The position numbers and the translations under genes are program-made. From Gekko japonicus (taxonomy: Eukaryota), in the NCBI RefSeq assembly GCF_001447785.1, contig NW_015162578.1, positions 100,050 through 161,329 of the forward strand: 61,280 bases of DNA. The letters run 5' to 3'. How positions within the stretch are numbered: position 1 is the stretch's first letter; each line of letters opens with the position of its first letter. This document shows positions 4,853 through 55,356 of this stretch, in pieces. Under the pieces are notes generated by a model, which did no database searches, was not told the origin of the DNA, and saw only the letters and a program-made list of their open reading frames with translations.

Positions 4853-5785
4853 TTATTTTGATTCTTTTATTGGGAATGACAACATTTTCCTAATCAGTTT
4901 TCTAACAGCATCTTTCATTTCTCTGTTTCTCAGAGTAAAGATCATTGGATTTAACATTGGAGTGATAAGGGTATAGCAAACAGAGGCTATTTTGTCACCT
5001 GGAAATACCCGGAAAGGACGGCCATATATGAACATTCCTGGAATAAAAATTAAGCTCGTAACGATGATTTGTGCAGCACATGTAGACAGGGCTTTGTGTT
5101 TCCCTTCTGTGATATGTGTTCTGATCTTTATCAAAATGACAGTGTATGATACTAGTAAGACACAGAAGATTAGTGTGAGAAGAAATCCACTGTTCGAAAC
5201 CATCAGTAGCTCTGTGATGTATGCATCTGTACAAGCCAGTTTGATGAGCTGTGGGACATCACAGAAGAAATTGTCCAATATATTGGGTCCACAGAAGGGC
5301 AGCTGAAGTATTAATGCTACCTGTATAATGGAGTGGGCAAAGCCACCCAACCAAGCACCTGCCACCAAACCAACACATACTCCTGGATGCATAATAAGCA
5401 AATATTGCAGTGGTCTGTAGATCGCTATGTATCTGTCAACAGCCATTCCTATTAGAAAAAAGGCCACAGCTCCTCCAGTAAAATGGAAGAAGAAAATTTG
5501 GGCAATGCACCACCTGTAGGAGATTGTATTTCTATGGGTGATGAGGTCCCACAGCATTTTGATTGCAGTCACTGTGGAGTCACTGATATCTATGACAGCC
5601 AGGTTGGCCAAAAGGAAGTACATGGGTGTGTGGAACTGAGGCATGAAAATCACGGTAATGATGATTGTCAGATTCCCCAGCCACGTTATGATGTAAATGG
5701 TGAGGAAAAGGAGGAAGAGGATGGTCTGCACCCTCGGATTCTGAGAGAAGCCCAAGAGAATAAATTCTGTTACTGTCGAATTCAT
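4853..5785 (-). CDS. Olfactory receptor, OR4D-like, paralogue A1 (310 aa)
   Basis: FHTPMYFLLANLA, MAVDRYIAIYRPLQY, LDNFFCDVPQLIKLAC, KALSTCAAQ, PMLNPMIFTLRN. The ORF-track start at 5791 is TTG; the true ATG is at 5785. Confidence 0.96.
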   Translation of the reverse strand: MNSTVTEFILLGFSQNPRVQTILFLLFLTIYIITWLGNLTIIITVIFMPQFHTPMYFLLANLAVIDISDSTVTAIKMLWDLITHRNTISYRWCIAQIFFFHFTGGAVAFFLIGMAVDRYIAIYRPLQYLLIMHPGVCVGLVAGAWLGGFAHSIIQVALILQLPFCGPNILDNFFCDVPQLIKLACTDAYITELLMVSNSGFLLTLIFCVLLVSYTVILIKIRTHITEGKHKALSTCAAQIIVTSLIFIPGMFIYGRPFRVFPGDKIASVCYTLITPMLNPMIFTLRNREMKDAVRKLIRKMLSFPIKESK

Positions 5786-7869
5786 TGCCAATGTGAAAAG
5801 TGAGGATTTAATTTCTGTGTATTACATGCCCAGATTTTACCCAGTTCATTATTTTAAGTGGTCTATCATTTTTTGTGTTCAGTCATATGAGAAAGTGAAC
5901 TTCTGTTCATTGGATCAGCTCAGCATGTTCTTAATTAATCTCAATCATAGTTTATCAATCAGTCGAGACACCAGGAGAGTTCACTGTATGTGTGGAGCCA
6001 AATGTTCAATGCTGAAACAAATGTAATCATAAAGCAAAATTAGGTGCTTCAAAAGCATAAATCACGCTACCGTCCTATATCTATAGTTAGGCTACCGTTC
6101 ACATTAACTTCAATGAGATCCAAAGCAATGTAGGCTGTAATTCGATGAACACTTTTTTCCTGAGAGTAAACCCCATGAAATAAAATTAGACTCTCTTATG
6201 ATTATTCATTGGATTACTTTCCGAATTGTATAGTATACAATTGCCTTCTCTAGTGAGAGGAAACAAAACATGTTATCACTGTAGTTATTGTGTTCATATA
6301 CAGCCAGTGGATAAAACCATTAGTCTATCCCCATCATGTACCCCAAGATGGCTTCTTTCTTACTGGTTTGGGAAATGCATTAATGAACCCACCTTGCTTT
6401 GCGTAAATGCAGAGCCCACCTTGCTTTGTATGAACATAATATATATACCCCACATTTTTTAAAAAAAAATGTATTTGTTTATTGAAGTTTAAAATAAAAT
6501 ACAATGAAGTGCTTAGTAAAGCATGAATGAAAAACAATTACAAAATTAATATTAAGCTGGTGGTGAATCGAGGATTGCCATTACAAGTTATCTGCCAATT
6601 TTGAGCTGATCAGTCATCATCATCATCAATTCTTTATTTGGCCTACGACCAGTACAAGTCAGTTATAAAAGCTTTACAATGTCATTAGAAAGTAAAATTG
6701 ATCCGATCTATTGGCAACAATTAGTTAAAATCTGTACATAAAATATCTCTAAGAATTCTACAGGCTACTGAAAAAAAATTGGCACAACTAATGGTAACCT
6801 GTTGATTAGCACCCATTAAAAATTTCTTTAAAATATATACATCTGAACATCCAGAAAAATTGATAAGCAGAGGGGAAATTATATTAGAATGAACTTCCTG
6901 ATAGAAGCGACAGTGGAATAACACATGCTCGACTGACTCCACCTGTTCAGTGCCACACAGACAAATACTTTCCTTCATGTGAATCTTTTTATATCTCCCC
7001 TCTAAAACTGCAGAGGGAAGGACTCGCCATCTCGCCAGAGTAAAAGCTCTCAGTTGACTGGGTACCTCCAGAACAGAGAGATAAGGTGCCGGGGCAACAA
7101 CATATTTAAGCTTCTCGGGTATCAGAGAGTTTGGAACATTGTTAATGTCTCTCGTCATTCTACATCAAGCAAGTTTTATTTGATCATTGATTTTGCTTGA
7201 TCAAAACCCATTTGCAGGAAAAATTCAGGAGAGAAACCCAAATTCTGCAGGTTGAATGGCCTTCTCCCAAGAGGATTGGAAATAGTCTTGCAGGACTAAC
7301 GTTATTAAACCCCATGGGTTATATGATAATTTTAACCAATAGTTAATGGAGGCAAGGCTTACCCTGGCCTCTACCTTAATCATGCCTGACTCGAGACGTA
7401 AGCTGGCATTGGACACACAGCTTGGCACCTGAAATAAAGCTCTCAGGAATCTTGATTGATTTTTTTCTAACGGGGCAAAGTGGGAGGAGGGGGGTCCAAG
7501 AGTTTCTCCATACATTAATTGGGACAATGTTTTTTGCCTGAAACAACCGGAGGGCTGCTTCCCTTAGAGCATGCAAATCTAAGAATGGCCTGTGCAGATT
7601 TTTGACCAGTTGCTGCAGCATACACAGGGTAGTTCTACTCCCTGTGGAGTGAATCATCACCCCTAAGTATTTGAAATAAGGTACTTGTTCCAGCTTATGG
7701 CCATTGATGTTCCAGGACCTTCTTTTCTGACCTTTGCCAAATACAACAATTTTAGTTTTGTTTTTTTACCATAAATTTTATTGAATTATTCATATAAACA
7801 CATGAAGAACAATTTTAGTTTTTTGATAGTTAATCAAAACTATAGCTAGAGACTCTTTGCAATAACAAC

Positions 7870-8255
7870 CAGGGGTCATTTCCCGCGGGAGTGCACAGGA
7901 GCGGAGCACCGGAAGTAAATAGCTCAGGGGGCGGGCACATGCAACAAGCCCCACCCCCTGCTCCCAGCAGCCCTCAGTCAGAGCAAGAAGCAGCTAGGTA
8001 AGTTGCAGAGCCAAAACAGTTCAGTGGCAGCTTTAAGACCAAGTTTTATTCAGGTACAAGTTCTCCCTCTTCTGTGCAGACAGACCTGCACGTTCCTCCC
8101 CCCACCCAATAGCTAGCCATCCAAAACAGTCCAGTGGATCCTGAGAGGTGGGTGTTGCCTTCTGACACACTTCCGGTGATGTCAGGGGGCGTGGCCTATG
8201 AAAATGAGTCATGCTAATGAGCTCCTGCACCTCTTTTTCTACTAAATGACCCCTG
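7870..8255. mobile_element. hAT-superfamily non-autonomous MITE
   Basis: Perfect 12-bp TIR CAGGGGTCATTT/AAATGACCCCTG; 8-bp TSD ATAACAAC (7862-7869, 8256-8263). Confidence 0.92.
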
Positions 8256-8794
8256 ATAACAACTGAATGCCTTAAGCATTCTTTTCAAGCCCACTGGGGT
8301 TCTGGACAGTACAACTGTATCATTGGCAAAAAGCAAAGCCAGGATTTTCCTATTGGCTAAAGCAGGGGGGTGGGTTTCAGTGGAGCTTATGCTACTGATC
8401 AGATTATTAATGTATAAATTGAACAGCACTGGTGCCAGGACACACCCATGTTTTACTCCTTTAGCTGTATTTACCAGGTTGGAAAGGTGCCCAGCCCTAT
8501 CACATCTAACTTTAAGTGATGTATTTGTATAGAGAGTTTGCATTAAATATAAAAGTCTAAGATCTATGTTCATAGCTTTCAATGTTTCCCACAACAAGCC
8601 CCTAGATATGGTATCGAAAGCAGATCTCAAGTCAAGGAAAGCAGCATATAACGAGGCAGACCTACTAGATGCGTATTTCTCTATTAGACATTGCATAGTT
8701 ATACATTGACCCAGTGTAGAACCCTCCCTGAAGCCTGCCTGTTCCAAAACAAGGATATCTAATTGTTCAATCCAGCATTTCAATTTGTCCAGTA

Positions 8795-10256
8795 ATAAAG
8801 CTCCCGGCGACCCAGCAACGCCGCTGGTCGTTGGGGGCTGATATGCCACCCTGAGGAAGGCAGGCAGCAACTGTAGCCACAATGCCTTGTGTCATGATGT
8901 GGGCGAGGGGGTGGAGCTGGCTTGGATAAACAGCCAGGCTATGCTCCTGCCCGTTGACATTTTTTCCAATGTGCTCACCCACCCTCCTGGCCTGTTCTTA
9001 GTGTAGCTTATGGCTAGTTGCCTATTGGGGCCAGGTAGGAATGTTTTGCTTTTACCCAGTAGTGGCTGAACGGGTGTAGGTGTTTTTGCCTACCTTGCAC
9101 TGAGAGCAGTGGATTGGATAATTGGTTGTGGTGGTTGACACCTAAATAGGCTGGTCATTTTATAGGTTGGTGCAGGCAAGATACCAGAACCAGTGAGCAC
9201 CTTACGGCATTTTCCCCGTTAGGGAACAAGGGGTCATCAGGAACTGCCTTCGGATTTCTAAGGTCCATGGTGGGGAATGGTGATCACCTCCTCTGGGAAC
9301 CATTGCATAGTTATACATTGACCCAGTGTAGAACCCTCCATGAAGCCTGCCTGTTCCAAAACAAGGATATCTTCTTGTTCAATCCAGCATTTCAGTTTGT
9401 CCAGTCACAAAGCTCCTCCCGGCGACCCGGCAATGCCGCTGGTGTTGGGGGCTGATTTGCCGCCCTGAGGAAGGCAGGCAGCAACTGTAGCCACAATGCC
9501 TTGCATCATGATGTGGACGAGGGGGTGGAGCTGGCTTGGATAAACAGCCAGGCTCTGCTCCCGCCCATTGACATTTGTTCCAATGTGCTCGCCCACCCTC
9601 CTGGCCTGTTCTTAGTGTAGGCTATGGCTAGTTGCCTATTGGGGCCAGTTAGGAATTTTTTTGCTTTTACCCAGTACTGGCTGAATGGGTGGAGGTGTTT
9701 TTGCCTACCTTGCACTGAGAGCAGTGGATTGGATAATTGGTTGTGGTGGTTGACACCTAAATAGCCTGGCCATTTGACAGGTTGGTGCGGGCAAGAAACC
9801 GGACTGAATGGGTGGAGGTGTTTTTGCCTACCTTGCACTGAGAGCAGTGGATTGGATAATTGGTTGTGGTGGTTGACACCTAAATAGCCTGGCCATTTGA
9901 CAGGTTGGTGCGGGCAAGAAACCGGAACCGGTGAGCACCTTATGGCATTTTCCCCATTAGGGAACAGGGAGTCATCAGGAACTGCCTTCGGATTTCTAAG
10001 GTCCAGGGTGGGGAACGGTGATCACCTCCTCTGGGAACCTCTTAGGGTATGCTCCTCTCTGCAAGTTGGAAGGCTTCAGGGGTAGGCACTCCTAAGTGGC
10101 GACCAGTTTGCTGGGCTGCCGGTCATGAGCCAGACCAATGGCTCAGGACCGGAGCTGGGTGGCAAGGAGGTTGGTCAGGGGAACGACACCAGCCTTGCCT
10201 GTTCTGTGCTCGCTTAGCTGGTCCCTTGCCACAATGTTATGTTAAATAGTTAATAA
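8795..10256 (+). mobile_element. Non-coding retroelement-like insert (possibly a DIRS/Ngaro 3' region), internally tandem-duplicated
   Basis: Interrupts the LINE RT; a ~610-bp unit is repeated (about 8690-9300 and 9301-10040) with a further ~120-bp repeat; family assignment is tentative. Confidence 0.5.
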
Positions 10257-12313
10257 CCCACCTGTTCCAAAACAAGGATATCTTCTTGTTCAATCCAGCA
10301 TTTCAGTTTGTCCAGTAAATGGCTAGTGTATAATTTGCCTATAATGCTGAGGAGACTTATAGGTCTGTAGTTAGCTGGGTCATCTCTCCTCCCTTTCTTG
10401 TAGAATGGTATAATGATTGCCTGCTTCCAGTCCTCTGGAATACGACCTGTTGAGTCAATGTATGAGAAAAGTGAGGCTAAAGGTGCTGCCCACCACTTGA
10501 TGTTGTTCATTAGGAAATCTGAGGGTATATTGTCAATACCAGGGGCTTTTCCTTTCTTTAATTGCTTTATAAGTGCTGTGACTTCTTTTGTTGATAAATC
10601 GGATAAATCTGATGTTATTTGTAAGTGCAGATCACACAAACTCACTGCAAAGATCTTTCGGAAGTAAGATTCTCAAACATCGGTCATGATTACTGAGTCC
10701 AAAGGAGAGAAGTCCTTGAAAGAGTGCTTAGAAGCCAATTTCCAAAAAAGTTTGGAGTTTTTATCTTGCTCCTGGGTCAATTTTCCCCATGTTTCCATTT
10801 TATCTGCTTTTCTCTTTTTAGCCACAGTTAATTTGTATGATTTCTTTCCATCTAAATAGGTTTGATAAAGAGCTCAGCTTTCTAAGTTGGATGTGGATTT
10901 GTAGACATGGAATGCAGAGATACAGATTCTTTTGGCATCTTGACAGTCCTTGTCAAACCATTTCCTAGAGGAACGTCCAGATTTCTTAATTTGTGATTCC
11001 GTGTTTTACAGTATTAGGGACTTTAATCTTTGAATGATGTTGTCATAGGGAATTAAGGGGTTCTCTCCCTCTGGGCAGTCAATGATGGCTGCTCTATTTG
11101 CCATACATTCCTCCTCAATTAAATATTTCAATATTTGATCTAATTGGGGTGTCCACTTGGCACGACAGCCTGTTTGTTCTGTTGGTATAATCTGTGTCTG
11201 GTATAATTTGGTATAATTTGAGCTTTAAGGTAACTCTTTTATGAACTGGCTTTTGTGAGCAGAGTAAGATCCAAGTCAGAGCAGAGACATCTGTAAGTTA
11301 TATCCCATAATCTCTGTAGTTTCCACCTAAATGAAAAGACCTCACAGGTTACGGTGCTTACCACCATAATGGCAAAAGAAAGAATGAGTTAATGCTAAGT
11401 ATCACCCTACCTCTGGAGTACTGTAATCTTATGCTTATGAATAATGTGAGCATCTGAGCATCTTCATTTCTATATCATTTGTTGTAGATAGGCCTTGTTC
11501 CCCCATTCCACCCATTTCCATCAATCGTATTCCCAAGTCAGTTGTTTCTTTTATGCCCTATGCACAGTTTCTGTGTCAGTCACCATTTATATGCTAAAAT
11601 AGAATTAATAAACATGTATATTTAATTGGGGGGGAAATCAGGAAAACAAAATGGAAAATGGTGCAGATCTTCAGATTCTCATGCTTTATCAGCACATGAC
11701 ATCTTTGGAGCAAACATCGGTCATGAGTAGAAATTCAAAATCACCCCTAATTTAGATTTAGCTCTTACTTTTTTCTTCCTCTATAAATCAATGCAAAAAA
11801 CAGTGGTCAAACTGTTTTGTGCCAGAGATAAGAATCATACTCACTTGTTCTNNNNNNNNNNNNNNNNNNNNNNNNNNNNNNNNNNNNNNNNNNNNNNNNN
11901 NNNNNNNNNNNNNNNNNNNNNNNNNNNNNNNNNNNNNNNNNNNNNNNNNNNNNNNNNNNNNNNNNNNNNNNNNNNNNNNNNNNNNNNNNNNNNNNNNNNN
12001 NNNNNNNNNNNNNNNNNNNNNNNNNNNNNNNNNNNNNNNNNNNNNNNNNNNNNNNNNNNNNNNNNNNNNNNNNNNNNNNNNNNNNNNNNNNNNNNNNNNN
12101 NNNNNNNNNNNNNNNNNNNNNNNNNNNNNNNNNNNNNNNNNNNNNNNNNNNNNNNNNNNNNNNNNNNNNNNNNNNNNNNNNNNNNNNNNNNNNNNNNNNN
12201 NNNNNNNNNNNNNNNNNNNNNNNNNNNNNNNNNNNNNNNNNNNNNNNNNNNNNNNNNNNNNNNNNNNNNNNNNNNNNNNNNNNNNNNNNNNNNNNNNNNN
12301 NNNNNNNNNNNNN

Positions 12314-17052: not shown

Positions 17053-17985
17053 TTATTTTGATTCTTTTATTGGTAATGAGATCATTTTTCTAATTAGTTT
17101 TCTAATAGTATCCTTAATTTCTCTGTTTCTCAGAGTAAAGATCATTGGATTTAACATTGGAGTGATAAGGGTATAGCAAACAGAGGCTATTTTGTCTCCT
17201 GGAAATACCCGGAAGGGACGGTCATAAATGAACATTCCTGGAACAAAATTTAAGCTTATAACAATGATTTGTGCACCACATGTGGACAGGGCTTTGTGCT
17301 TTCCTTCCGTGACATGAGTTCTGATCTTTATCAAAATGACAGTGTATGATACAAGTAAGACACAGAAGATTAGTGTGAGAAGAAATCCACTGTTTGAAAC
17401 CATCAGTAGCTCTGTGATGTATGTATCTGTACAAGCCAGTTTGATGAGCTGTGGAACATCACAGAAGAAATTGTCCAAAATATTGGATCCACAGAAGGGC
17501 AGCTGAAGTATTAATGCTACCTGTATAATGGAGTGGGCAAAGCCACCCAACCAAGCACCTGTCACCAAACCAACACACACTCCTGGATGCATAATAAGCA
17601 AATATTGCAGTGGTCTGTAGATCGCTATGTATCTGTCAACAGCCATAACTACTAGGAAAAAGACCACAGTTCCTCCAGTAAAATGGAAGAAGAATACCTG
17701 GGTAATACACCAGTTGTAGGAGATGGTATTTGTGTGAGAGCTGAGGTCCCACAGCATTTTGATTGCAGTCACTGTGGAGTCACTGATGTCTGTGACAGCC
17801 AGGTTGGCCAAAAGGAAGTACATGGGTGTGTGGAACTGAGGCATGAAAATCACGGTAATGATGATTGTCAGATTCCCCAGCCACGTTATGATGTAAATGG
17901 TGAGGAAAATGAAAAAGAGGATGGTCTGCACCCTCGGATTCTGAGAGAAGCCCAAGAGAATAAATTTTGTTACTGTCGAATTCAT
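17053..17985 (-). CDS. Olfactory receptor, OR4D-like, paralogue A2 (310 aa)
   Basis: Intact ORF highly similar to A1; ATG at 17985 (the track start is TTG). Confidence 0.96.
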   Translation of the reverse strand: MNSTVTKFILLGFSQNPRVQTILFFIFLTIYIITWLGNLTIIITVIFMPQFHTPMYFLLANLAVTDISDSTVTAIKMLWDLSSHTNTISYNWCITQVFFFHFTGGTVVFFLVVMAVDRYIAIYRPLQYLLIMHPGVCVGLVTGAWLGGFAHSIIQVALILQLPFCGSNILDNFFCDVPQLIKLACTDTYITELLMVSNSGFLLTLIFCVLLVSYTVILIKIRTHVTEGKHKALSTCGAQIIVISLNFVPGMFIYDRPFRVFPGDKIASVCYTLITPMLNPMIFTLRNREIKDTIRKLIRKMISLPIKESK

Positions 17986-20250
17986 TGCCAATGTGAAAAG
18001 TGAGGATTTAATTTCTGCGTATTACATACCCAGATGTTACTCAGTTCATTATTTCAAATGGTCTATAATTTTTGCATTCAGTTATATGAGAAAGTGAACT
18101 TCTATTCATTGGGTCAGCTGAGCACATTCTTAATGATTCTTAATGATAGTTTATCAATAAGTAGAGACAGCTGTGTATCTGGAGCCAGAAGTTCAATTCT
18201 GAAACAAATTTAATCAAAAAGCAAAATTAGGTGGTTCAAAAGCATAAATCATGCTGCCATCCTATATATAGTTAGGCTACGGTCACATTAACTTCAATGA
18301 GATCCAAAACAACGTAGGCTGCAATCCTAAGAATACTTCCTTCCAGAAAGTAAGCCTCATGAAATAAAATTAGACTTTCTTATTATTAGACCTGCTTTGG
18401 ATTACTCTCTGAATTTTATAGTATGCAATTACCATCTCTAGTGAGAGGAAATAAAACCTAACAGTAGCTATTGTGTTCATAGAAGGCATATGGATAACAC
18501 CATTAGTCTATCCCCATCATGTACCCCAATATGGCTTCTTTCTTACTGGTTTGGGAAATCCATTAATAAACAGATTACCCAGAGCCCATCTTGCTTTGTA
18601 TGAACATAATGTGACTACCACACAGTTAATAGCACCCTCCTCAAGTCATAAAACTTTCTAAGGGGGGGGAGTTACGGTGGGAGTGCAGTTATATCCCATA
18701 ATTTCTGTTGTTATATCCCATAATTTCTGTAGCTTTTAATTTCCACCTAAACTAAAAGACCTCACAGGTTCCTATGCTTACCAGCATAATGTCTAAAGAA
18801 TGAGTTAGTGCTAAGTATTATCCTACCTGTGGACTACTGCAGTCCTATGATTCTGAATGATGTGAGCATCTTCCCATCTTCATTTCTAGATGTTTCACTT
18901 GTTGGAGATAGAAGGTTCCCCCCCCCATTCTGCCCATTTGCATTGATCATGTTCCCAAGGTGATTCTTTCTCTTATGCCCTATGCAGAGTTTCTGTGAGA
19001 GTCACCATTTATATGCTAAAACCAGAACTGATTAACATGTAAATTTAATTGGGAAAAAATCAGGAAAACAAAAAAGAAAATGGTGCAGATTTGCAGATTC
19101 TCATGCGTTATCAGCACAGGAGAGAAGATAAAATAACATGGGGGCTTTGGAGCTGAAGCATCAGTGAGAAGAATTTCAAAATCATCCCTAGTGTAAATTT
19201 AGCTCTTGTTGATTTCAGTGAAACTTACTCTGAATTAAGTGTGCATAGAATTGTGTTCTTCAGTACTTCATTGAACAGACTAAGGTAGTTATGCTAAAAT
19301 CAAGCATAAATGTGATTCTGGTGAGCTCTTTCACTTGTTAAAACTCCAAATATTCTTCAACAGCCCAACAAACTGTATGTTTTATACTGCAATTCTAAAC
19401 AGAATATATCCCATTGAAGTCAGTGGGCTAATAAAGGTATAGCTTTGCTTAGTATGGCATTGTTAATCACCTCAGAAAATGTCACACCTCTCACACCACC
19501 ATAATTTTAATTATTTACCTATCTGTGAGCACATTCCAATCATTGGATAATGGATTGGAAAATAATTTTAAGAATATATTGGCATATTGTTTAAAGCAGA
19601 TGCCTTATTTGCCTTTTTAAAAAATGCATATGCTTTAAAATGCATATACATTCTCTGCCATGGAAGTGACTATCAACATGGTATACAATCATTACAAGAC
19701 TCTGTGGTGGATTCAACCAGCTTTTGCAGCTGGTGTTCCCTTTGACCACCATGACCCTCAAAAACTATACCGGAGATCATGTCATTGCATGGATAAAAGT
19801 CAATTTGGAAATGCATGGGAAGGGTCTGAGAGCCATTCTCTGGTCCCCATCCCTAGGTTCTCTTTTGAAAGTAGGATTCAAATAATGTCAGACTTTTAAT
19901 ACATTGATTATGACTATCACTGACCATAGGAAGGAGATGGGTCTCTTTTCTAGACTGATGGAGATTTTCTCTCCATTCTTACTTAAGCCATTTGTTCATA
20001 AGGCAGTTTGTTCATAAGGAATTTGATGGAGCTAGTAGGGCTGCTAAATGTCTGATATCCCATAAATTGCAACTTATGAGAAAGCTTCGGACTGATAGTT
20101 CGGTGAAAGATCTCCTGGCTGGTAAGCAAATTGTACAGGGGGGAAAAAACTGCTGCCAGAATGAGATCCTGGCAGATGCTAATCAAGGCTGCTTAGTGTG
20201 ATGAGACATCCAGATTCTGGTTGATTGTCTCCTCTTCTTTAAAAACTAGA

Positions 20251-29858: not shown

Positions 29859-31419
29859 TATGTTTAGTCTGGAGAGCAGACGACAGAGAGGTAATATGAT
29901 AACCATGTTCAAGTACTTTAAGGGTTGTCATATAGAGGATGGTACAGAGTTGATTTCTTTTGTCCCAGAAGATTGGATCAGAACCAACGTGTTGAAATTA
30001 AATAAGAAGACTTTTTGGCTAAACATTAGGAAGAACTTCCTAACAGTTCAAGTGGTTCCTCAGTGGAACAGGCTTCCTTGGGAGATGGTGGGCTCTCCTT
30101 CTCTGGAGGTCCTCAAACAGAGGCTAGATGGCCATCCAACAGCAATGCTGATTGTGTTAACTTAGACAGATCATGAGAGGGAGAGCAGGAAGGGTTGCCT
30201 CAGTGCTTAGTTCTTGTGGCCCTTTCTTACGCACCCAGGGAAATGCTGATCGCCACTTTTGGGTCAGGAAACCATTTTTCTCCAGGCCACTTGGACTGGA
30301 GATCCTGGAGGTTTTTTGTTATCTTCTGGGCACGGAACAGTAGTCACTGCAGGTGTGGAGGGGGAGGCATTTGTGAATTTCCTGCCTTGCACAGGGGGTT
30401 GGACTAGATGACCCTGGAGGTCCATTCCAGCTCTATGATTTTATGACACACAGCCACACACACAAACACACACAGATAGAACACTCCACTCAGTTATAAC
30501 CTATGAATCATTCTGTGCTATGACTTCTAAAAATATAGGTATGATTTTAATTATCTCTCTTGGGGTTTGATTCCCTGTTCACAAAATATCTGATATTGTT
30601 CTTCTGTATGATAAAATGAAATCATTGCAACAGACTGCTGGAATACAGCAATAACATAGGATGTAGGAGTTTTTCAGCATGGGGGTGGGAAACACAGAGC
30701 AGAGAGTAAGCTGGCTGGAAGTGAATTATGTATGCTATGTGATATCATTTTTGTGAGTGCTCAGAGTAGCTTTAGATACACTGATCAGTGTTGCAAGGAA
30801 CAGTGCCATTATATTAGGTATCACCACAGTTTGGTTACAAAATTAAATTCATTAGCTTCAGATCTCTGGGACTGTAAAAAAAAATCAGAAACAGAGTATT
30901 CTTTGATGTAAGGGAAACACATTGCTGGAAGAAAGAGGAGTCACTGAGCTGAAAATGAAGAACTGAAGCCCAGAATCTGACATTTCTTATTTGGTATGTT
31001 GACATTTATGAAAATGTATGATGTACGTGAAGCTCTGACAGTAGGTCCATCTATAGATGGATTTCAGCTTGTGGGAGGGCTGAAGGATTTTGCACTGTGC
31101 TTATTCTTGTGGTAGCATGAGCCATCTGTCTGGCCATTGTCAGAAACAGGACGTTGGACTAGATGGACTATTAATTATGTTCGTAAAACACATTCTTCAA
31201 CTTGAGGAACAAGATATATGTTCTAGATGCATGCCATCAGTTTGTATTGAACTGCATTCTCTCTGTTTTCTTCTCTTAATGATATCTATGTGAAAACTAT
31301 CACATTGCATCTTAATGAGGCAAAATCAGGGATGAAAACATGCTGGGAAGGGCAAATACAGAACATGATCAGGTACACGAAAGGACTTCTTACAACATAT
31401 CTGTGCCAAAAAAGAAAAT

Positions 31420-34273: not shown

Positions 34274-35269
34274 ATGGCTCAGGACAACCAGACCTCAGGA
34301 GTGACAGAATTTATTCTGTTGGGCCTCAGCCAGAATTCCAAAGTGAATTTGTTCCTCTTTCTACTTTTTCTCATTATCTATATAACAACATGGATTGGGA
34401 ACCTCACCATTATCCTCACGGTGATCTTCATGCAACAGCTTCACACACCTATGTACTTTCTACTGGCCAACCTGGCTGGCACAGATATTGTTGATTCCAC
34501 AGTGACTGTTCTCAAAATGCTTGGAGGTCTCCTATCCCAACCCAATACCATCTCCTTTAACTGGTGTATTGCTCAGATTTTCTTTTTCCACTGCATTAGT
34601 GCTGCTGTAGATTTTTTCTTAGTGTTGCTGGCTGTTGATCGCTACATAGCTATCTATAAACCTCTGCAGTACTTGCTCATCATGAAACGAGAAGTTTGTA
34701 TAGGATTTGTAGCAGCTGCATGGATGAGTGGCTTTATTCACTCCATTGTGCAGATTGGGATTCTCGTTCAGCTGCCTTTCTGTGGACCCAACACGCTGGA
34801 CCATTTCTTCTGTGACATCTCCCAGTTTGTCAGACTGTCGTGTACTGACACATACATGACTGAGATACTGATGGTTACTAACAGTGGGCTACTCCTTGTG
34901 GTCATCTTTTTTGCCCTCCTTGTGTCATACTCTGTGATCTTGATCAAGATTAGGACACATGTGATGGAAGGGAGGCACAAAGCCCTTTCTACTTGTGCCG
35001 CTCAGCTCATGGTCGTAAGCATACATTTTGGACCTGCAATGTTCACTTATAATCAGCTTTTCAAAGTATTTCCGACTGAGAAGTTTGTTGCGCTAATGTA
35101 TACTCTCATCACACCAATGTTGAACCCATTAATTTATACTCTGAGAAATGCAGAAATGAAAAATGCTATTAGGAAACTCAAAAGAAAAATTTTGTCTTCA
35201 AGAAGAAATAGTTGTCCTTGCGGCCCAGATTTCAGTTCAGAGTACTTAAAATGTAGAAGATGCATTTAG
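34274..35269 (+). CDS. Olfactory receptor, OR4D-like, paralogue B1 (331 aa)
   Basis: LHTPMYFLLANLA, LAVDRYIAIYKPLQY, KALSTCAAQ, PMLNPLIYTLRN; splice acceptor ttttgCAG ending at 34250. Confidence 0.96.
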   Translation: MAQDNQTSGVTEFILLGLSQNSKVNLFLFLLFLIIYITTWIGNLTIILTVIFMQQLHTPMYFLLANLAGTDIVDSTVTVLKMLGGLLSQPNTISFNWCIAQIFFFHCISAAVDFFLVLLAVDRYIAIYKPLQYLLIMKREVCIGFVAAAWMSGFIHSIVQIGILVQLPFCGPNTLDHFFCDISQFVRLSCTDTYMTEILMVTNSGLLLVVIFFALLVSYSVILIKIRTHVMEGRHKALSTCAAQLMVVSIHFGPAMFTYNQLFKVFPTEKFVALMYTLITPMLNPLIYTLRNAEMKNAIRKLKRKILSSRRNSCPCGPDFSSEYLKCRRCI

Positions 35270-37399: not shown

Positions 37400-39840
37400 C
37401 ATGCTTCCAATTGTTCAGGCTCAACAGCAGCACATTTACTCTAATGTACAGAATTTTGAATAATGCAAGAACCTGCCTATGATGACCATAGTATAGCCTT
37501 TTCCAGGGGTCATTTAGTAGAAAAAGAGGTGCNNNNNNNNNNNNNNNNNNNNNNNNNNNNNNNNNNNNNNNNNNNNNNNNNNNNNNNNNNNNNNNNNNNN
37601 NNNNNNNNNNNNNNNNNNNNNNNNNNNNNNNNNNNNNNNNNNNNNNNNNNNNNNNNNNNNNNNNNNNNNNNNNNNNNNNNNNNNNNNNNNNNNNNNNNNN
37701 NNNNNNNNNNNNNNNNNNNNNNNTCAATCCTGCAGAGCTTGCTGGCTCTGAGCGATTTACAGTTACTCATTTTTCACGAGGGACTAACAATGATTTGTGG
37801 GGTTAGGGAGGACAACATATATACATATTAATTCACACACATTTGCAGCCGATGAGGGTTTTGTTCAGTTTGAAGATGAGACGTGATCCAGACCACATTT
37901 TCCCCCCTCGGCCTGGTTTGATGGCGTCAGCTCTCTCCAGACTCCTTTGAGTTGTAATGCCGCACTGCCACTGCCTGGCTGGAACGGCCCATTACAGGCT
38001 GTCTTCATGCCAAGGAGATCTCTCTAGGTTTTCCAATCTTGTAAGCTGGACTTCCGTTCCACGGCTAACACCGCTCCACCCCACGAGGGGGTGGTTCAGG
38101 GTTCCCACTCTCTCTAAGGAGTGGTACCCATTTTATCTACTCGCCGAAGCTTTCGAACCGCTGGGTAGATGGCGAGCTGGGGACAGGGCTGGTAGCTCAC
38201 ACCAGCGTGGGGCTAGAACTGACAGCAAGCCTGTTCAGCTCAGATGTTACTATTATAACCAGAGGATAAATCCGATGTGCCACCGCTCCCCTTCATTAGC
38301 ATAATTCATTAGCATAACTCATTTGCATATACCACACCCCCTGACATCACCAGAAGTGTGTCAAAAAGCAACACCCACCACTTAGGCTCCACTGGACTGT
38401 TTTGGATTGCTAGCTATTGGGGAGGGGGAACATGCAGAATCTGTCCTCACAGAGGAGGGAGAGCTTGTACCTGAATAAAACTTGGTCTTAAAGGTGCCAC
38501 TGGACTGTTTTGGACTGGGGGGCTCTGCAACTTACCTGGATGCTGCTTGCTCTGACTGAGGGCTGCTGGGAGCAGGGGGTGGGGTTTATTACATGTGCCC
38601 ACCCCCTGGGCTCTTTACTGCCTGAGCTCCGCTCCTGTGCACTCCTGCAGGAAATGACCCCTGGCCTTTTCAGTGATAAAAGGAACCCTTTCTATTTCTT
38701 TCACCAATGGTAGCATGCATCCCACTGAAATAATGACATTACTCCACATCCTTTCTGTTGGTAAGAACTGGGATCCAAGGGTCCTACATTACCACATGTC
38801 ACTAGTAATATCTGTAATATATTTTAACATCTAGGGATACACAAGCAGCATATTCAATTTGAAAAGGAAGTTCAGTTATGCATCTACTTTTTAATGATAT
38901 TCCTTGTGGGCTGATCCCCAGATCATTGAAATCCCTTGATTATCTTTCCACTGTGCTAGAGCAAGGCAGTAGTTTTTTTGTGTGATCAACAGGAATGCAT
39001 AGTAACCATTCAGATCATGGCATGCTACTTTCACAACATGTCACTGGATTTCCCTGGGGTGGGGTTAAAGATGTATCTTTTATCTCTCTGAATATGTGGG
39101 AAATGCCAAATCCAGCTATGATATGATGAAGCCTTGTGGATGATTTGATTATTGTAGTGGCAGGACCTGTGCAGAGGAATGCCTAAAGCCAGGCAATGAT
39201 TGGAAAACTCTGTACTAAACAAAGGTCTAGGTTAGTATACATTTTTTCTCAGTGTTTAACTAATTGATATTCGAATGTTCATTTGAGGAGCCCTAAATCC
39301 ATCTCTGAAACAAAGGAAGTTATCATTTGATACCATTCATTTCCCACCTCTTTGGTGGAAAGAGGTTGCCATAGCTTTTGGTCTTTTGGACTTGCATTGG
39401 GGAAAAAGTTGTTGCTGTTGTTTTTTCCACACATTGGAAAATCACAGTAAAAATTGCTTCTAGATCACAGGAGGTAACAGGGAGTTTTGTCAATAAAGGT
39501 TCATGAGCCCACTGTGACTGGCTTCTCTCGAACAAGAATCTAGCCAACCATGTATTGTTACTTCTTGTATTAACTTTTATTTCATTTCATTTTATTGGAT
39601 TTATGTCCTGCTCTTCCTGCAGAGCAGGCTCAGGGTGGGTTCCATCAGACATCATAAACAATATACAACATACAAAAATTAAAACAGTTAAAATGCGAAT
39701 GAAATAGAACATTCCTCTGGTGCAAGTCATAGTTAAAGCCTTTTCTGTTTGATTTGGAAGCTGCAATTGACATAGAATACTAAGGCTCAAAATTTGGCCA
39801 GGACAGGTAACAAGCAGGAGATGTCTCCCAGTCCCATTCA
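37400..39840. promoter_or_regulatory. Duplicated OR upstream cassette, copy 3 (inverted), upstream of A3
   Basis: Reverse-complement homology to copies 1 and 2; ACTTTTTAATGA at 38886-38897 followed by TATTCCTTGTGG; O/E site TCCCTGGGG at 39051-39059. Confidence 0.55.
37504..38663. mobile_element. hAT MITE of the same family as 7870-8255, opposite orientation, with an internal insertion and gap
   Basis: Same 12-bp TIR; 8-bp TSD GCCTTTTC (37496-37503, 38664-38671). Confidence 0.9.
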
Positions 39841-41005: not shown

Positions 41006-41928
41006 CAGAGAGATAAGATAATACCTAGTGTTAGATCACTTTTTCTATAGCACCTAAGGTGGTAAGTATAGGAACCTGTGATGCAGATGGAAATTAAATG
41101 CTACAAAAATGTGGGATATAATGTATAGATTATTCTACTATAACTTGGACCCTTTGGTCCTGCTCTGCTCACAGGAGCCAATTTTATTCACAAAATAGGG
41201 GGAGGATTTTCCGATTCTGCATTCCCACTGCAAAGCCCCCTCACCTTAGAAAGGTGTACAAACTTAGGAGAGTACTGTTTGTTGTGTGGGGTATAAATTA
41301 TATCCACACAAAGCAAGATGAGCTCTCAGTAGTCTGTTGATTAGTGGATTTCCCAAACCAGTAAGAAAGAATTCATATTGGGGTACATGACAAGCATAGA
41401 ATAATGGTTTTATTCACTGGCTCTATATGAACAAAATAACTACAGCTTAGTTAGGTTTTGTTTCCTTCAGACTAGAAATGGCAGTTGTAATACTATGCAA
41501 TTTGGAGAGCAATCCTAAACTGGACTAGTTATAAGTTTAATTTTATTTCATGGGGCTTACTCCCAGGAAAGAAGTGTTCTTAGGATTGCAGCCTACATCG
41601 CTCTCGATCCCATTCAAGGTAATGTGACTGGTAACCTAACGATATACAGGACAGCAGCATGAGATATGCTTTTGATTCACCTAATTTTGCTTTACGATTA
41701 AATTTGTTTCAGCATAGAACTTCTGGCTCCAGACATGCTGAACTCTCCTGGTATGTCTACTTATGACAAACTATAATTAAGAACGTGCTCAGCAGACCCA
41801 ATGAATAGAAGTTCACTTCTGCACATAAAAGAATACAGAAATTATGGACAACCTAAAATAATGAATTTAGTAAAATCTAGGTATGTAATATACAGAAGTT
41901 AATTATATATATAAGGGGGGAAACGGCA

Positions 41929-42861
41929 ATGAATACAACAGTAACAGAATTTATTCTCTTGGGCTTGTCTCAGAATCCAAGGGTGCAGACCATTCTCTTC
42001 CTCATTTTTCTTGCCATTTACATTACGACCTGGCTGGGGAATCTGACAATCATTCTTGTTGTAATTTTCATGCCTCATTTCCACACACCCATGTACTTCT
42101 TTTTGGCCAACCTGGCTGTCATAGACATCAGTGACTCCACAGTGACTTCAATCAAAATGCTGTGGGATCTCAGCTCCCACACAAATACCATCTCCTACAA
42201 CTGGTGTATTGCCCAGGTATTCTTCTTCCATTTTACTGGAGGAACTGTGGTCTTTTTCCTAGTAGTTATGGTTGTTGACAGATACATAGCGATCTACAGA
42301 CCACTGCAATATTTGCTTATTATGCATCCAGGAGTTTCTGTTGGTTTGGTGACAGGCGCTTGGTTGGGTGGCTTTGCCCACTCCATTGTACAGGTAGCAT
42401 TTATACTTCAGCTGCCCTTCTGTGGACCCAATGTATTGGACAATTTCTACTGTGATGTCCCACAGCTCATCAAACTGGCTTGTACAGATATATACGTCAC
42501 AGAGCTACTGATGGTTTCAAACAGTGGGTTTCTTCTCACACTAATCTTCTGTGTCTTACTTGTATCATACACTGTAATTCTGATAAAGATCAGAACACAT
42601 GTCACAGAAGGGAAACATAAAGCCCTGTCTACATGTGCTGCACAAATCATAGTTATGAGCTTAATTTTTATTCCAGGAATGTTCATATATGACCGTCCTT
42701 TCCAGGTATTTCCAGGAGATAAAATAGTTTCCGTGTGCTATACTTTTATCACTCCAATGTTGAATCCAATGATCTTTACTCTGAGAAACAGAGAAATGAA
42801 GGATACTATTAGAAAACTAGTTAGAAAAATGATGTCATTTGTAATAAAAGAATCAAAATAA
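41929..42861 (+). CDS. Olfactory receptor, OR4D-like, paralogue A3 (310 aa)
   Basis: Intact ORF; inverted paralogue of A1/A2 including flanks. Confidence 0.96.
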   Translation: MNTTVTEFILLGLSQNPRVQTILFLIFLAIYITTWLGNLTIILVVIFMPHFHTPMYFFLANLAVIDISDSTVTSIKMLWDLSSHTNTISYNWCIAQVFFFHFTGGTVVFFLVVMVVDRYIAIYRPLQYLLIMHPGVSVGLVTGAWLGGFAHSIVQVAFILQLPFCGPNVLDNFYCDVPQLIKLACTDIYVTELLMVSNSGFLLTLIFCVLLVSYTVILIKIRTHVTEGKHKALSTCAAQIIVMSLIFIPGMFIYDRPFQVFPGDKIVSVCYTFITPMLNPMIFTLRNREMKDTIRKLVRKMMSFVIKESK

Positions 42862-43720: not shown

Positions 43721-46700
43721 AACAATGCAGCATTGTCCCCATTTTTTCCCCACTCTTGATAAACCAACTGGTGGGGAAGGGCTTCTGGTGGGAGTTCTCC
43801 TGGAATAAGCAGGCAACTGGGAACCCAACTCCAGAAGAACCGATAACTATAGTCTGGAGACCAGTAGTGATTCTGTGAAAACTCCAGGTTGGCAACCATA
43901 GTAGTAAGCAAGGGACCAGGAAGGGAGGTGTCTAGCACTGGCCTAGACATAAGAAGCCAGACTGGAAAGCCTCCCCCATCATAAAATGACTCAGGATAAT
44001 CATCAGACATTTGTAGCTTAAGCAAAAGAACACACCAACCTCAGTAGGCCCTAGCCGGTTTATTACAGGTTTATTTACTTAACTTTGGCAAAGTGAAGCA
44101 GGGAAAGAAGAAACCTTTCATGGCCAATCTTAAAGAGTCCAAAAATCTTACTTGGACCTGAAACAACCAGCTAATCCCACATTGCCAAATACAAATGGTG
44201 AGTGCTATTCTCAAGAAGGTGCAAACTTATAAAGTTTGCTTACTGCGTCCCCTTGAAGGGATGAGGATCCCAGTCTCCTCAAATAGCCACCCAAAAGCTC
44301 AACTTTTGTCTTTGCTGGAAAAAGGAGAGGGCAAAGAGAGTTTCTGAGCATGATGGAAGGGTGCGGAACTTCTTTCGACAATTCTCAAGCACTAATATCA
44401 CAGTCTGTATTGAACTGTCAATCACCGGTGTGGCACATGAGCATTCAGCTTTTGCACAATCATTCAGCAACAGCCTCCAAAGGGAAACACAGCAAGGTCA
44501 GTCAGTCACTATAGCCAAGAAATCATTGAACAAGAATGGCCAACTGATCTCTGATAAAGCACCTCCTGACTCAGTCTTACTCAAGCTAGTGCACATGATC
44601 TCAACTAAAGAAGAAGAAGAACCAATATGGCCCCATTCACATGGAGAAGTTGCCACGCTGAAGACACAGATGATAGGCAGATTTTCCAGGTGCGATCACA
44701 CCACAACATTTGGGAAGCGTAGTGCACCCGTGGCATGTTGCCGAAGATGCGGAGTAAAAAACCACCACATAGGATGTACTAGTTTCCAAAAAACGCGGGG
44801 CAAGGGTGGGCGTCTGATCGCGTTTCTGCTGAAAACCCTTGGCATCCAGCACCCGCCCATGTCCCCTTGCAAACCAAATGTTTTTTTAAAGTCCCCACAG
44901 GATGCACACAAACGATCATGCACATGCACAAACTTCGGTGAGACAAAAAAAAAACCCATTTGCCACAGAAGTGGCACGGCGCGATTGCCAGTGTGAACGC
45001 ACCGTGCTCCTTCTTTGCCGCGCTCCTTCTTTGCCGCGCTGCAGACTAGCTGTCTGATTGGCATCTAACACCTAACCACGGGACCTCGACAGGAGGTCTG
45101 ATTGGGCTGCCGCATGTTACTTTGTTTCGGGGCAAACAGCCACGCTTCCCCCCACACACATTTTCCGGCCCGTGTGACTGGGGCCTATATGAACTTTACA
45201 AAAACAAACTTGCATCTGCTTCTACTCAAAGGGAATATACAGAATATGCACTTTTACCCAGGGGCTGACTACCTTATCGCAAAAGTTGCACACCTGAGCT
45301 TGGACTTTGTCATTTCAAACTTGGATTGGAGATACATGTGACTGTGCATTTATATATGGTATTTGCGTAAATATGCCCAATCCCCTACATTGAGAAATCT
45401 GGATTTTAGGGACTGCATTTCAGTCTTTCCTATTATTCTAGGTTCAAAAAGAATCTTTCCCGATGAGCCTATCATTGCAAATTGAAATCAGGAAAATCTG
45501 ACCTAATGGCACATCTTCCTTCACCAATGCAAATTTTCAAAATCAAATCTCTTTTTTAAAACAAATATATCATTCCCCAAACATCTGGACTTCTTGGGGA
45601 CTAGTATTTTGATCATATTAACCATGTGATCTTCAGACATCTTGTAATTAGTCTTGTTTTATAATAGTAGGTAATATTTGGAATTAAACACGATTAGGTT
45701 CCCCCAGAATGAGCTGCTTATATCTGTCTAAAAAGAACTGAAATAAATTGTTCCTATTACTCTAATAGTGACCTTTAAGGCCCTAAATGGTCCTGGACCA
45801 ACATAACTTCAGGACTGCCTCTCCTTTTATACCCTCTCCCCTGGTGATCCTTAGCCAGAAAAAAAAATATATCTGGCTGTCCTGAATGTGTACTGAATGT
45901 TGTACAATGACATGAGTCCCAAATAATAGGTAAGGGTGGTCTAGAAATTGAATCAATCAGGCATAATGTTACTTTGCATGTTAAAATGGAAAAGAATGTA
46001 AAATGCTATTGTTCCGGAAGGCATGTTTCTAAAGGGAACAGGGCTCTAGTTTATTACGTTATTTATTGTCTGTATGTTCTTCCTCATTGCTTTCTAATTT
46101 CCGTAATTCTGTTTTTGTCTTGTTTATAATATGTCTTGTTGCATCCAATTTTACATTGCATTTTTTTTAAAAAAAACTTTTAGAAATCTTCCTTGTGTCT
46201 CAAAGAGAAAGGCAGACTACCAAGAATGTAAATAATTAATGAAAATTAATATCATTTTCCCGAGTCTTCCATGAAAAAAAATCACATTCATATTTTGCTT
46301 GTCTCAACATCTTCCATATAACTTGAAAAATAAAACAAAGTTCCAAGAAGTTGTTTTGTGTTAACTTATTTATTTATTTCAGTTTGTATCCCGCTCACCT
46401 CCTTAGGGCTCTGAGTGGCTTACATGTTTCAATTAACACAAATCCTAGCCTAGGGGCACATACATATAGGGAAAGTGACAAGCCTACCAGGCACCCCTTT
46501 TGTAGTGGATTTTCGTTGTTGTCTTTCTTGCAGGAGATAGTCTGGCGGCATCCTTTCTGGCGCTGGTCTTTGAAGTTACGCCTTCTGTTCCCACCTTCCG
46601 GCTGTTGCGATTCCTTTTCCGGGCCTGGGCCACTCGCACTTATGTACATGCTCGCTGTGGCCTCTGTCCAGACTAGGCTCCGGCCTGCTGCGACGCTCTG

Positions 46701-50670: not shown

Positions 50671-50767
50671 TCACTTTAGATATTAGGAGGTATGATGGAA
50701 TCTCATATTTATTACCTCACGTCACTGTTGTTTTCTGCTTGTTGCAGGTGTATTGTGAAGGTTCAAG

Positions 50768-51751
50768 ATGGCTCAGGAAAACCTGACCATAAAAGTCACA
50801 GAATTTGTTCTCATAGGTCTTTCGCAGAATCCAAAATGGAATTTCATCCTCTTCCTGATTTTCATCACTATCTACATCACAACCTGGCTTGGAAACCTCA
50901 CCATTATCTTCACAGTGATCTTCATGCGTCAGCTCCACACACCTATGTACTTTCTACTGGCCAATCTGGCTGCTTTAGACATCAGTGATTCCACAGTCAC
51001 TGCTCTTAAGCTGCTAGCAGGCTTCCTATCACACCCCAATACTATTTCTTACAACTGGTGCATTGCTCAGATTTTCTTTTTCCACTTTACTGGTGCTTCT
51101 GTGGATTTCTTGCTCACAGTAATGGCTGTGGATCGGTACATAGCTATCTACAAACCACTGCAGTACTTAACTATCATGAACCAAGGGGTTTGTATAAGCT
51201 TGGTAGCAGGTGCTTGGCTGGGTGGCTTTGTTCACTCCATTGTCCAGATTGGGATCCTCCTTCAGTTGCCCTTTTGTGGACCCAACACGTTGGACAATTT
51301 CTACTGTGACATTCCCCAAGTTGTCAAACTGGCTTGTACAGACACATACATCACCGAGTTGCTGATGGTTTCTAATAGTGGATTGATTGTTGCAGCTATG
51401 TTCTTTGTCTTACTTGTATCATACTCTGTCATTTTAGTGAAGATCAGAACCCATGTCACAGAGGGAAAGCACAAAGCTCTTTCGACTTGTACTGCACATA
51501 TTGTGGTACTGAGCTTAAATTTTGGGCCTGCAATATTCATTTATGACCGGCCTTTCAAGGTATACCCAGGAGATAAGATATTTCAAGTAATGTATACTCT
51601 CATCACCCCAATGCTGAACCCAATGATCTTTACACTGAGAAATACAGAGATGAAAAATGCCATGAAGAAACTCAAAAGGAAAATTGTGTCTTCAAGAAGC
51701 AGAATCTTTACTAGGAAAAAATCCTTTGATCTAGGTTGCACTGAAAAATGA
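50768..51751 (+). CDS. Olfactory receptor, OR4D-like, paralogue B2 (327 aa)
   Basis: MAVDRYIAIYKPLQY, KALSTCTAH, PMLNPMIFTLRN; acceptor gttgCAG ending at 50747. Confidence 0.97.
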   Translation: MAQENLTIKVTEFVLIGLSQNPKWNFILFLIFITIYITTWLGNLTIIFTVIFMRQLHTPMYFLLANLAALDISDSTVTALKLLAGFLSHPNTISYNWCIAQIFFFHFTGASVDFLLTVMAVDRYIAIYKPLQYLTIMNQGVCISLVAGAWLGGFVHSIVQIGILLQLPFCGPNTLDNFYCDIPQVVKLACTDTYITELLMVSNSGLIVAAMFFVLLVSYSVILVKIRTHVTEGKHKALSTCTAHIVVLSLNFGPAIFIYDRPFKVYPGDKIFQVMYTLITPMLNPMIFTLRNTEMKNAMKKLKRKIVSSRSRIFTRKKSFDLGCTEK

Positions 51752-52605: not shown

Positions 52606-52897
52606 CTTAGGCAAATCATGAGAGGGAGGGCAGGAAGGGTTGCATCAGTGCTTAGTTCTTGTGGCCCTTTCTTACATGCCCAGGGAAATGCTGATCACCA
52701 CTTTGGGGTCAGGAAGCAATTTTTCTCCAGACCAGTTTGGCTGGAGATCCTGGAGGTTTTTTGTCATCATCTGGGTATGGAACAGTGGTCACTGGGTGTG
52801 TGGGGGGGAGGTATTTGTGAATTTCCTGTATTGTGCAGGGGGTTGGACTAGATGACCCTGGAGGTCCCTTCCAACTCTATATTTCTATGATACTATG
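52606..52897 (+). mobile_element. CR1 3' UTR fragment
   Basis: Same sequence as 30160-30445. Confidence 0.85.
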
Positions 52898-54662: not shown

Positions 54663-55356
54663 AATGCTTTTTGGAATAATTTAGTATCTCTGCCTCTGTG
54701 ACACTGGGATAGCCCCAGGAATTCAAAATTGTAACTTCTGATCAAGAAGCAAGATGGATCCTATGGTTGAAGATGAAGAACTCAGAACAAGCATTGAGAG
54801 AGTTTGCAGTATCACTGAGGCAATACAGAAATTATAACACTGGCACTGACGCAACTGAGATATCCTATATTTGCTTCTATGATCCATCCCTGTTTGCTAT
54901 GCTCAACAACCCAATAGCTCCCTGTGCTTGCCATATAATGGTGATTAGAAAACAGAATAATAAGTTTTGCCTCCTGTTGATAGAGCTTCAGCAAGAAGAA
55001 TCAACAGCAAGAACAATCATCCCCTTTTTGCAATCTGTAACCAGAATTGCATTTATAACAAACATTATGCCCACCATTGTCCCCACCATTGTTCTCTACT
55101 CCTCCATTTTATACTCACAACAGCCCTGTGAGGTAGATCTGGCTGAAAGGTTTTGACTGGACCAAAGAAATCCATCCAGGCTGTTGTCCAGAGCTGTNNN
55201 NNNNNNNNNNNNNNNNNNNNNNNNNNNNNNNNNNNNNNNNNNNNNNNNNNNNNNNNNNNNNNNNNNNNNNNNNNNNNNNNNNNNNNNNNNNNNNNNNNNN
55301 NNNNNNNNNNNNNNNNNNNNNNNNNNNNNNNNNNNNNNNNNNNNNNNNNNNNNNNC

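Follow-up and report, generated by a model that had tools for sequence, protein, structure and literature searches.

We found that a hairpin present twice in a retroelement insert of Gekko japonicus is a real, selected RNA structure that is ENE-like by architecture, with two U tracts facing each other in an internal loop. Judged from the sequences of its relatives, the hairpin appears to be one arm of a conserved, covarying three-way-junction domain of the sense strand, which occurs in the spacer between the A2 and B2 repeats of Ngaro tyrosine-recombinase (YR) retrotransposons and in the 3' untranslated regions (UTRs) of CR1 LINEs. We consider it somewhat probable that this arm acts as an ENE that would clamp the poly(A) tail, as in the model known from other elements. 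The case against chance comes from the family data rather than from the copies in the window (the whole 61,280-nt stretch of contig NW_015162578.1 that was analysed) by themselves.

Results

An insert in the window carries two damaged copies of the hairpin

The window covers an olfactory-receptor gene cluster, as told from receptor-like open reading frames (ORFs) named by eye, in a genome of 2.49 Gb. Seven olfactory-receptor-like frames are open (634-1572, 4853-5821, 17053-18021, 34274-35269, 41881-42861, 50759-51751 and 60189-61187), three of them ~91% alike and partly inverted. The insert with the hairpins (8797-10256) breaks the reverse transcriptase (RT) frame of a LINE on the minus strand and comprises a dispersed 790-bp unit in two partial copies (Table 1). 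The same host LINE also holds, at 7869-8256, an insert resembling a non-autonomous DNA transposon, whose terminal inverted repeats are 12 bp long and whose target duplication is 8 bp. We take it to be hAT-like; an inverted relative lies at 38306-38664, and similar inserts are found inside the Ngaro copies L101 and L105.

Table 1. Features of the window; R1 is a covariance model of X, built from relatives of the window's Ngaro family
Feature	Position	Strand	Evidence
Host non-LTR retrotransposon RT frame, interrupted; resumes 10257-10672	8214..8796	-	PF00078, E 4.9e-18 for 8214-8891
Partial Ngaro A-X-B unit, copy 1 (A ~8797-8977, X ~8978-9160, first part of B)	8797..9301	+	BLAST vs 28 genomic copies; borders from full-length elements
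Whole X domain, copy 1 (outer helix P1, side hairpin P2, ENE-like arm, conserved 3' block)	8966..9177	+	R1, 171.7 bits
ENE-like arm, copy 1	9033..9095	+	Sequence, fold, family alignment
Duplicated host-LINE piece separating copies 1 and 2 (like 8689-8796)	9302..9405	-	Self-BLAST
Ngaro A-X-B unit, copy 2 (A ~9410-9591, X ~9592-9775, B)	9407..10256	+	BLAST vs 28 genomic copies; borders from full-length elements
Whole X domain, copy 2	9580..9792	+	R1, 166.1 bits
ENE-like arm, copy 2	9647..9710	+	Sequence, fold, family alignment
Exact 123-bp tandem duplication within copy 2	9681..9926	+	
Homologous module, CR1 LINE 3' UTR (CR1 tail ~30400-30445; ORF2 end upstream)	30237..30325	+	R1, 24.4 bits
Decayed module of older repeat family	44012..44217	-	R1 match
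Homologous module, second CR1 3' end	52643..52840	+	R1, 44.7 bits

The A segment of copy 2 carries a GC box and a TATA-like motif, and the copy ends within a poly(A) signal (AATAAA) at 10256. Its tandem duplication yields a third copy of the hairpin, 3' half only. A 56-bp piece of the LINE is identical on the two sides of copy 2 (9350-9405 and 10261-10316), and copies 1 and 2 are only 93% alike; the identical flanks and the exact duplication reflect either a recent rearrangement or an assembly artefact.

The copy 1 arm folds with a lower stem AGGUAGG/CCUACCU (9033-9039/9089-9095), an internal loop of 7 x 6 nt (9040-9046 on the 5' side and 9083-9088 on the 3' side) and an upper stem (9047-9058/9071-9082), and it is damaged by a U>G change at 9043, which breaks the 5' U tract, and by two mismatches in the upper stem. 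In copy 2, the 5' loop reads AA and then U6, the upper stem is formed by 9662-9673/9686-9697 and the 3' loop spans 9698-9703; the lower stem is interrupted because a G>T change at 9649 gives AGUUAGG in place of AGGUAGG. An earlier note on this DNA had assigned the stem AGGTAGG/CCTACCT to both hairpins, which describes copy 1 and not copy 2, and had read AA plus a U run, seven long in copy 2. The AA and six loop U's of copy 2 are there; the seventh U is the first base of the stem, produced by CpG decay, and in copy 1 the run is interrupted.

Compared with 200 dinucleotide shuffles, the arms alone were equalled in stability by 12 (copy 1, z -1.7) and 35 (copy 2, z -1.0), and the surrounding 126-nt domain by 0 and 5, respectively. 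A strict ENE descriptor matched neither the window nor any of 100 shuffled windows, which is uninformative with both copies damaged, and Rfam returned nothing at gathering score in the window; on four loci, its one match was a weak miRNA hit elsewhere in L228, the full-length relative described below. Since the motif is damaged in each window copy and a whole poly(A) signal is missing from both, they are decayed and probably inactive.

The hairpin lies in the spacer of an element assigned to Ngaro

The earlier note had placed the hairpin in a retroelement insert, and we agree: from its sequence, the hairpin-bearing element appears to be a Ngaro YR retrotransposon, inserted antisense into the LINE. 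Within the 790-bp unit, the hairpin occupies ~235-300 and lies in X, a single-copy spacer between the split repeats A2 and B2. The right half of the unit, B (360-790), precedes the whole unit, and only 1-176 (A) recurs far to the left, giving the layout A1-internal-B1-A2-X-B2. We found these split direct repeats in L228, a full element of a sister subfamily (by self-matches), and in the window-family copies L032, L049 and L056. L228 matches RT (PF00078, E 7.8e-9) and YR (PF00589, E 5.6e-7), both on the strand of the hairpin, which had been read in the right orientation as the sense strand of the element. L228 also has a gag-like frame and an RNase H-like region, the latter read from the translation and without a Pfam hit. 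In the sister copy L227, the ORF just before B1 resembles a GDSL/SGNH hydrolase (PF13472, E 2.1e-6) at 28.8 bits, below the Pfam cut-off of 32.9, and window-family copies keep degenerate YR and SGNH motifs on the same strand (read by eye).

Ngaro elements (order DIRS), such as DIRS-53_XT of Xenopus, have a gag-like ORF, RT/RH, YR, an SGNH hydrolase and split direct repeats in the order A1 ... B1 A2 B2 (PMC9210276). The gecko element is alike in ORF set and repeat order, and it adds a unique, structured A2-B2 spacer of ~180 nt, which goes unmentioned in the accessible portion of PMC9210276. Readings by eye as a hammerhead ribozyme/Penelope element, an ERV solo LTR or a SINE were dropped after YR, RT and the split repeats emerged.

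The A-X-B unit gave 1122 first-look candidates in the genome, 40 of which were scored, and solo A-X-B units are very abundant. In the window's own subfamily, the SGNH ORF has decayed to a ~100-bp tandem-repeat array (L031:7650-8300, L032:7600-8300, L033) and several copies are without most of the interior; this subfamily is a non-autonomous lineage. Head-to-tail units (B-A-X-B-A-X-B; B-A-internal-B) in L054, L056 and L158/L231 suggest insertion into the element's own junctions or multimeric intermediates.

U tracts and stem pairing are conserved across Ngaro copies

A genome-wide pattern for the lower stem only gave 271 matches, 100 of them listed, with 0 for the reversed control. The listed matches and copies found by BLAST made up 118 distinct copies, in which the U tracts had not been selected for. 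Both U runs are at least four long in 111 of these 118. The opposed U tracts that the earlier note had drawn from the window therefore hold for the family, with that of copy 1 broken, and the two checks it had proposed, family-wide conservation of the tracts and covariation of the stems, both came out in its favour. The 5' loop is AA-U5, each U being kept in 115-117 of the 118 copies, and the 3' loop is U4 (each U in 116-117) followed by CG (33), TG (70) or CA (13). Neighbouring T columns of the spacer are conserved at 0.37-0.84, not counting the apical UU or the GUG that lies at the base of the stem. The family's upper stem starts one pair earlier (C-G) than described for the window copies; this C-G pair closes the U loop on the upper side, and two G-C pairs, offset by the AA and the CG/UG, top the lower stem.

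Pairing was scored in 163 copies of 18 spacer types, one reverse-strand self match having been removed from 164. Across the 9 multi-member types, 96.3% of upper-stem positions pair, compared with 82.0 ± 3.2% when the arms are swapped (0 of 10,000 shuffles as high), and with Watson-Crick pairs only the values are 76.5% and 60.1% (1 of 10,000); since Ngaro copies share ancestry, these shuffle counts overstate certainty and are not probabilities. Over all 18 types, 90.1% pair, against 80.7% swapped. Among 1467 pair cells, G-U/U-G outnumber C-A/A-C by 386 to 28; post-insertion decay should give U-G and C-A about equally, so this points to an RNA fold of the sense strand.

In a plain MAFFT alignment of 49 diverse copies (A2; 51 sequences were picked, and L012 and L119 left out), both-side changes occur in 8 of 11 upper-stem, 4 of 8 outer-stem and 2 of 6 side-hairpin pairs, with 94 both-side-change cells over the domain vs 28.8 ± 5.4. 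The lower stem is near-invariant there because the copies were picked on it. RNAalifold gives nearly the same three-way junction. The lengths of the two U tracts co-vary (129 short/short, 21 long/long and 13 other copies, n = 163), and their joint lengthening is clean in three spacer groups. For most of the 18 type representatives, prediction leaves both tracts largely unpaired; the invariant 5' AA may pair with the 3' U's, at ~10-20% in several predicted folds and as the dominant state in L142. Between five subfamily representatives, pairwise likeness is 75-84% for the arm, 67-81% for X, 58-82% for B and 47-58% for A.

An apical (A/U)UUGGC is kept in 139 of the 163 Ngaro copies (in the window, for example, around 9677-9681) and also in CR1 and the older family. 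The motif can be read as a reverse CCAAT box, too. A pseudoknot of the apical UUGGC with the 5' side of P2 is not supported: 91% of cells pair, without covariation, 289 of 500 shuffles score as high, and it competes with P2.

The module occurs in CR1 LINEs, an older repeat and metagenome contigs

The R1 search of the window gave three further matches besides the X copies, two of them 3' ends of CR1 (Table 1). The third belongs to an older repeat family whose better-kept relatives have the lower stem AAGCAGG/CCUGCUU; Ngaro protein similarity was sought alongside this locus and none was found. R1 detects the module in 45/45 CR1-type loci and in 9/11 loci of the older family. A genome-wide search gave 322 matches for the lower stem in its CR1 form (AGGAAGG/CCUUCCU), 2 for the control and 1 for a stem that was a hybrid of CR1 and Ngaro, and the window's CR1 3' end gave 5636 first-look candidates. 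Of 37 matches at loci found by the Ngaro 5' half, 29 had the Ngaro 3' arm and none that of CR1. In the 29 of 30 CR1 loci that were parsed (L262 was not), the CR1 tail hairpin follows the module in 24, 48-81 nt downstream. Similarity to ORF2 was present upstream of 13 of 14 loci. A cross-class alignment, A3, which was itself fitted to the model, has both-side changes in all four helices; the lower stem thus appears to be compensated between Ngaro, CR1 and the older family. With the upper-stem pairing above, this is the covariation that the earlier note's reading called for.

The CR1 tracts are looser, with each 5' U kept in 22-28 of 29 loci, and the subfamily of the window's CR1 has a rearranged lower stem and often misfolds in prediction. 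In L250, L252 and L260, CR1-derived modules inside what is apparently another shared repeat have C runs in place of the U tracts. Insertions of CR1 terminate in octamer repeats instead of poly(A). At 53465-54740 lies the ORF2 remnant of a CR1 of a different subfamily, whose 3' UTR (end near 54560-54740) has no R1 match; the module is therefore limited to some CR1 lineages. The 3' UTR of CR1, suggested to be an RT recognition site, has a terminal hairpin and the octamer repeat (PMC4316615). The module shares that 3' UTR and is likewise a conserved structure near the element's end, and it differs from the hairpin described in PMC4316615 in being a separate, larger domain upstream, missing from the other CR1 of the window.

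More distant carriers were sought by sequence pattern and DNA search. Four metagenome contigs (L292-L295) keep the architecture with yet another upper stem, and each has a second, degenerate copy of the module ~150 nt after the first. A pattern search of viral contigs gave 0 matches.

RNA reads cover the spacer

Three RNA sequencing runs of one study gave 514, 50 and 285 raw reads that matched a 1-kb stretch of L016, flanks included. They cover X and B at low depth, with little on A, and are mostly 90-95% alike to L016, in both mate directions; their source organism may differ from that of the genome. These reads derive from many copies. Among the listed read ends on L016, there was neither a poly(A) end nor a splice joint at the donor-like site of the lower stem, and read depth did not drop there. 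A search of sequencing runs matched 11 with small shares, with no RNA run among those listed.

Discussion

Comparison with known ENEs

In KSHV PAN, the poly(A) tail folds back into the U loop of the ENE (PMC7583470), and the ENE of the Arabidopsis transposon Evade/Copia93 is a precedent for the same in a transposon (PMC12501189). The gecko arm and the single-domain KSHV PAN ENE have in common the order of stem, opposed-U internal loop and stem, G-C pairs atop the lower stem and a place before a poly(A) signal (PMC7583470, PMC13541005). The gecko arm, in contrast, has an extra invariant AA on the 5' side, a 3' tract that is often U4 and two G-C pairs at the place of the three A-minor triples of KSHV; it is set in a three-way junction, carries a conserved apical motif and, in Ngaro, lies ~490 nt from AAUAAA, and its ENE function is putative. 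The KSHV PAN ENE has a 2-nt 3' bulge, which is also found in the gecko module.

Like Evade and other transposon ENEs, the module lies in the 3' non-coding part of a retroelement behind the last ORF, and a C-G pair closes its U tracts on the upper side. It is single-domain, unlike double-domain ENEs, in which one hairpin has two U-rich internal loops, and its hosts are a reptile YR retrotransposon and a non-LTR LINE, two retrotransposon orders, rather than LTR or DNA transposons. ENEs of the MALAT1/MEN-beta type have an encoded A-rich tract and a tRNA-like element downstream; the aligned 78 nt downstream of the gecko arm hold no A-rich tract, and the Rfam searches of the window and four loci gave nothing tRNA-like.

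Tycowski, in 2016, reportedly described ENE elements in plant, fungal, slime-mould and stickleback-retrovirus elements, as reviews relate. ENEs have been predicted in stickleback retroviruses, and only about ten transposon ENEs have been tested, according to the accessible portion of PMC7583470. A vertebrate retroelement ENE is thus not without precedent, and the earlier note's impression that ENEs are undescribed for such elements is too wide when applied to vertebrate retroelements. For Ngaro or CR1, none was described in the literature searched, which was mostly open-access and without Tycowski's element list. The note's main suggestion, that this vertebrate retroelement RNA may use an ENE, gains from architecture, conservation and covariation across the family; the two window copies are damaged, and neither arm is remarkable alone.

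A poly(A)-tail clamp and its alternatives

X follows the last gene and precedes the final AAUAAA, behind which there is a GU-rich stretch; from loop to signal the median is 486 nt (110 of the 163 copies have both). In the mechanism we propose, the full-length Ngaro RNA would start in A1, read through the B1 signal and be polyadenylated at B2, ~490 nt past the loop. Its tail would then fold back into the U loop, as in KSHV PAN and Evade, and the two opposed tracts would clamp it in U-A-U triples, slowing deadenylation as an ENE does. The end of X may also form a long-range helix of 8 bp with bases that overlap AAUAAA, and this could draw the tail nearer or hide the B1 signal. For CR1, the distance from the loop to the element's end would be ~110 nt. 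Several points count against an ENE: the extra AA, the 3' side of often only U4, the two G-C pairs only, the 486 nt to the signal, the looser tracts of CR1, its copies with C runs, the octamer repeats at its ends and the absence of a poly(A) end among the listed RNA reads. Moreover, an ENE includes neither the apical (A/U)UUGGC nor the three-way junction, and both are conserved, so selection also acts on another function.

That function could be the binding of a protein, and as a full explanation this is a serious if somewhat improbable one: the domain would be a cis-element for packaging, RT loading or priming (psi/epsilon-like, or a host-factor site), with the U loop as a flexible hinge or binding site. 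The apical UUGGC, the junction and the invariant AA, for which the ENE offers no explanation, speak for such a role. Of the segments between the terminal repeats, X alone is single-copy, as is the ICR of DIRS-1, which is needed for transposition and for which no primer is known in the accessible portion of PMC7192593, and the CR1 3' UTR has, as noted, been suggested as an RT recognition site (PMC4316615). Against this, the matched lengthening of both U tracts fits the register of a triple helix, and at least one CR1 of the window (3' end near 54560-54740) is without the module. CR1 and Ngaro also encode unrelated RT systems, which makes a shared RT site unlikely. The ENE role and a protein-binding role are not mutually exclusive.

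The long-range helix raises the less likely alternative that the domain mainly steers the choice of poly(A) site: the end of X would pair over the AAUAAA of B1, the full-length RNA would read through to B2, and the U loop would be just part of the fold. At each column of the 8-bp core, 106-108 of 110 copies are paired, partial folds of L228 give it a probability of ~0.38 with B1 and 0.46 with B2, and both helix halves surround the domain in 10 of 29 CR1 copies. However, there is almost no covariation in this helix, the copies were themselves picked by its two motifs, no more than 14 of the 110 have it as their best duplex in B, and it is lost when the fold holds both B1 and B2. Steering of this kind also leaves unexplained the U tracts and the presence of the module in CR1, where no such signal was seen.

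It is very unlikely that the fold acts in single-stranded minus-strand cDNA, of the kind that DIRS-1 makes (PMC7192593), or is a neutral relic carried by descent: single copies fold no better than shuffles, but the excess of G-U over C-A favours the sense strand, the arm is far more alike between subfamilies than their A repeats are (75-84% against 47-58%), and compensatory changes are found in three helices. The weakest alternative, scarcely credible, takes CAG|GUAGG in the lower stem as a splice donor, or as a U1 snRNP site that suppresses an upstream poly(A) signal, regulated by the hairpin; the donor-like motif is kept in the examined Ngaro copies, which were largely selected on it, but its GU is replaced with compensation in CR1 and the older family, a loss in two of three lineages that argues against a donor role, and the RNA reads run through the site at steady depth with no joint among those listed, so that this reading is largely refuted for the shared module.

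Returning to the tail clamp, a wider picture is possible, and we hold it tentatively, with more doubt than belief: a portable 3'-end module, made up of the three-way junction, a poly(A)-clamping ENE arm and a second conserved signal, may have moved between a YR retrotransposon and CR1 LINEs in vertebrates and been selected in both, and in Ngaro may also set which of two identical poly(A) signals is used.

Meaning

Natural variants of the module (U5/U4, U6/U5 and C-run copies) are ready controls, with the C-run copies L250, L252 and L260 serving as loss-of-motif controls. The module marks the probable end of the full-length Ngaro RNA and so gives a handle on how split-repeat elements make their template; if the module does govern the choice of poly(A) signal, choice of the 3' end and protection of the tail would be tied to the unsolved replication cycle of these elements. 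Transposon ENEs are known almost only from plants and fungi, according to the accessible portion of PMC7583470. If the ENE reading is true, an RNA module would have been exchanged between a LINE and a YR element, and a working ENE would be present in thousands of reptile copies from two unrelated retrotransposon orders, which would bring the shielding of poly(A) tails to major vertebrate repeats.
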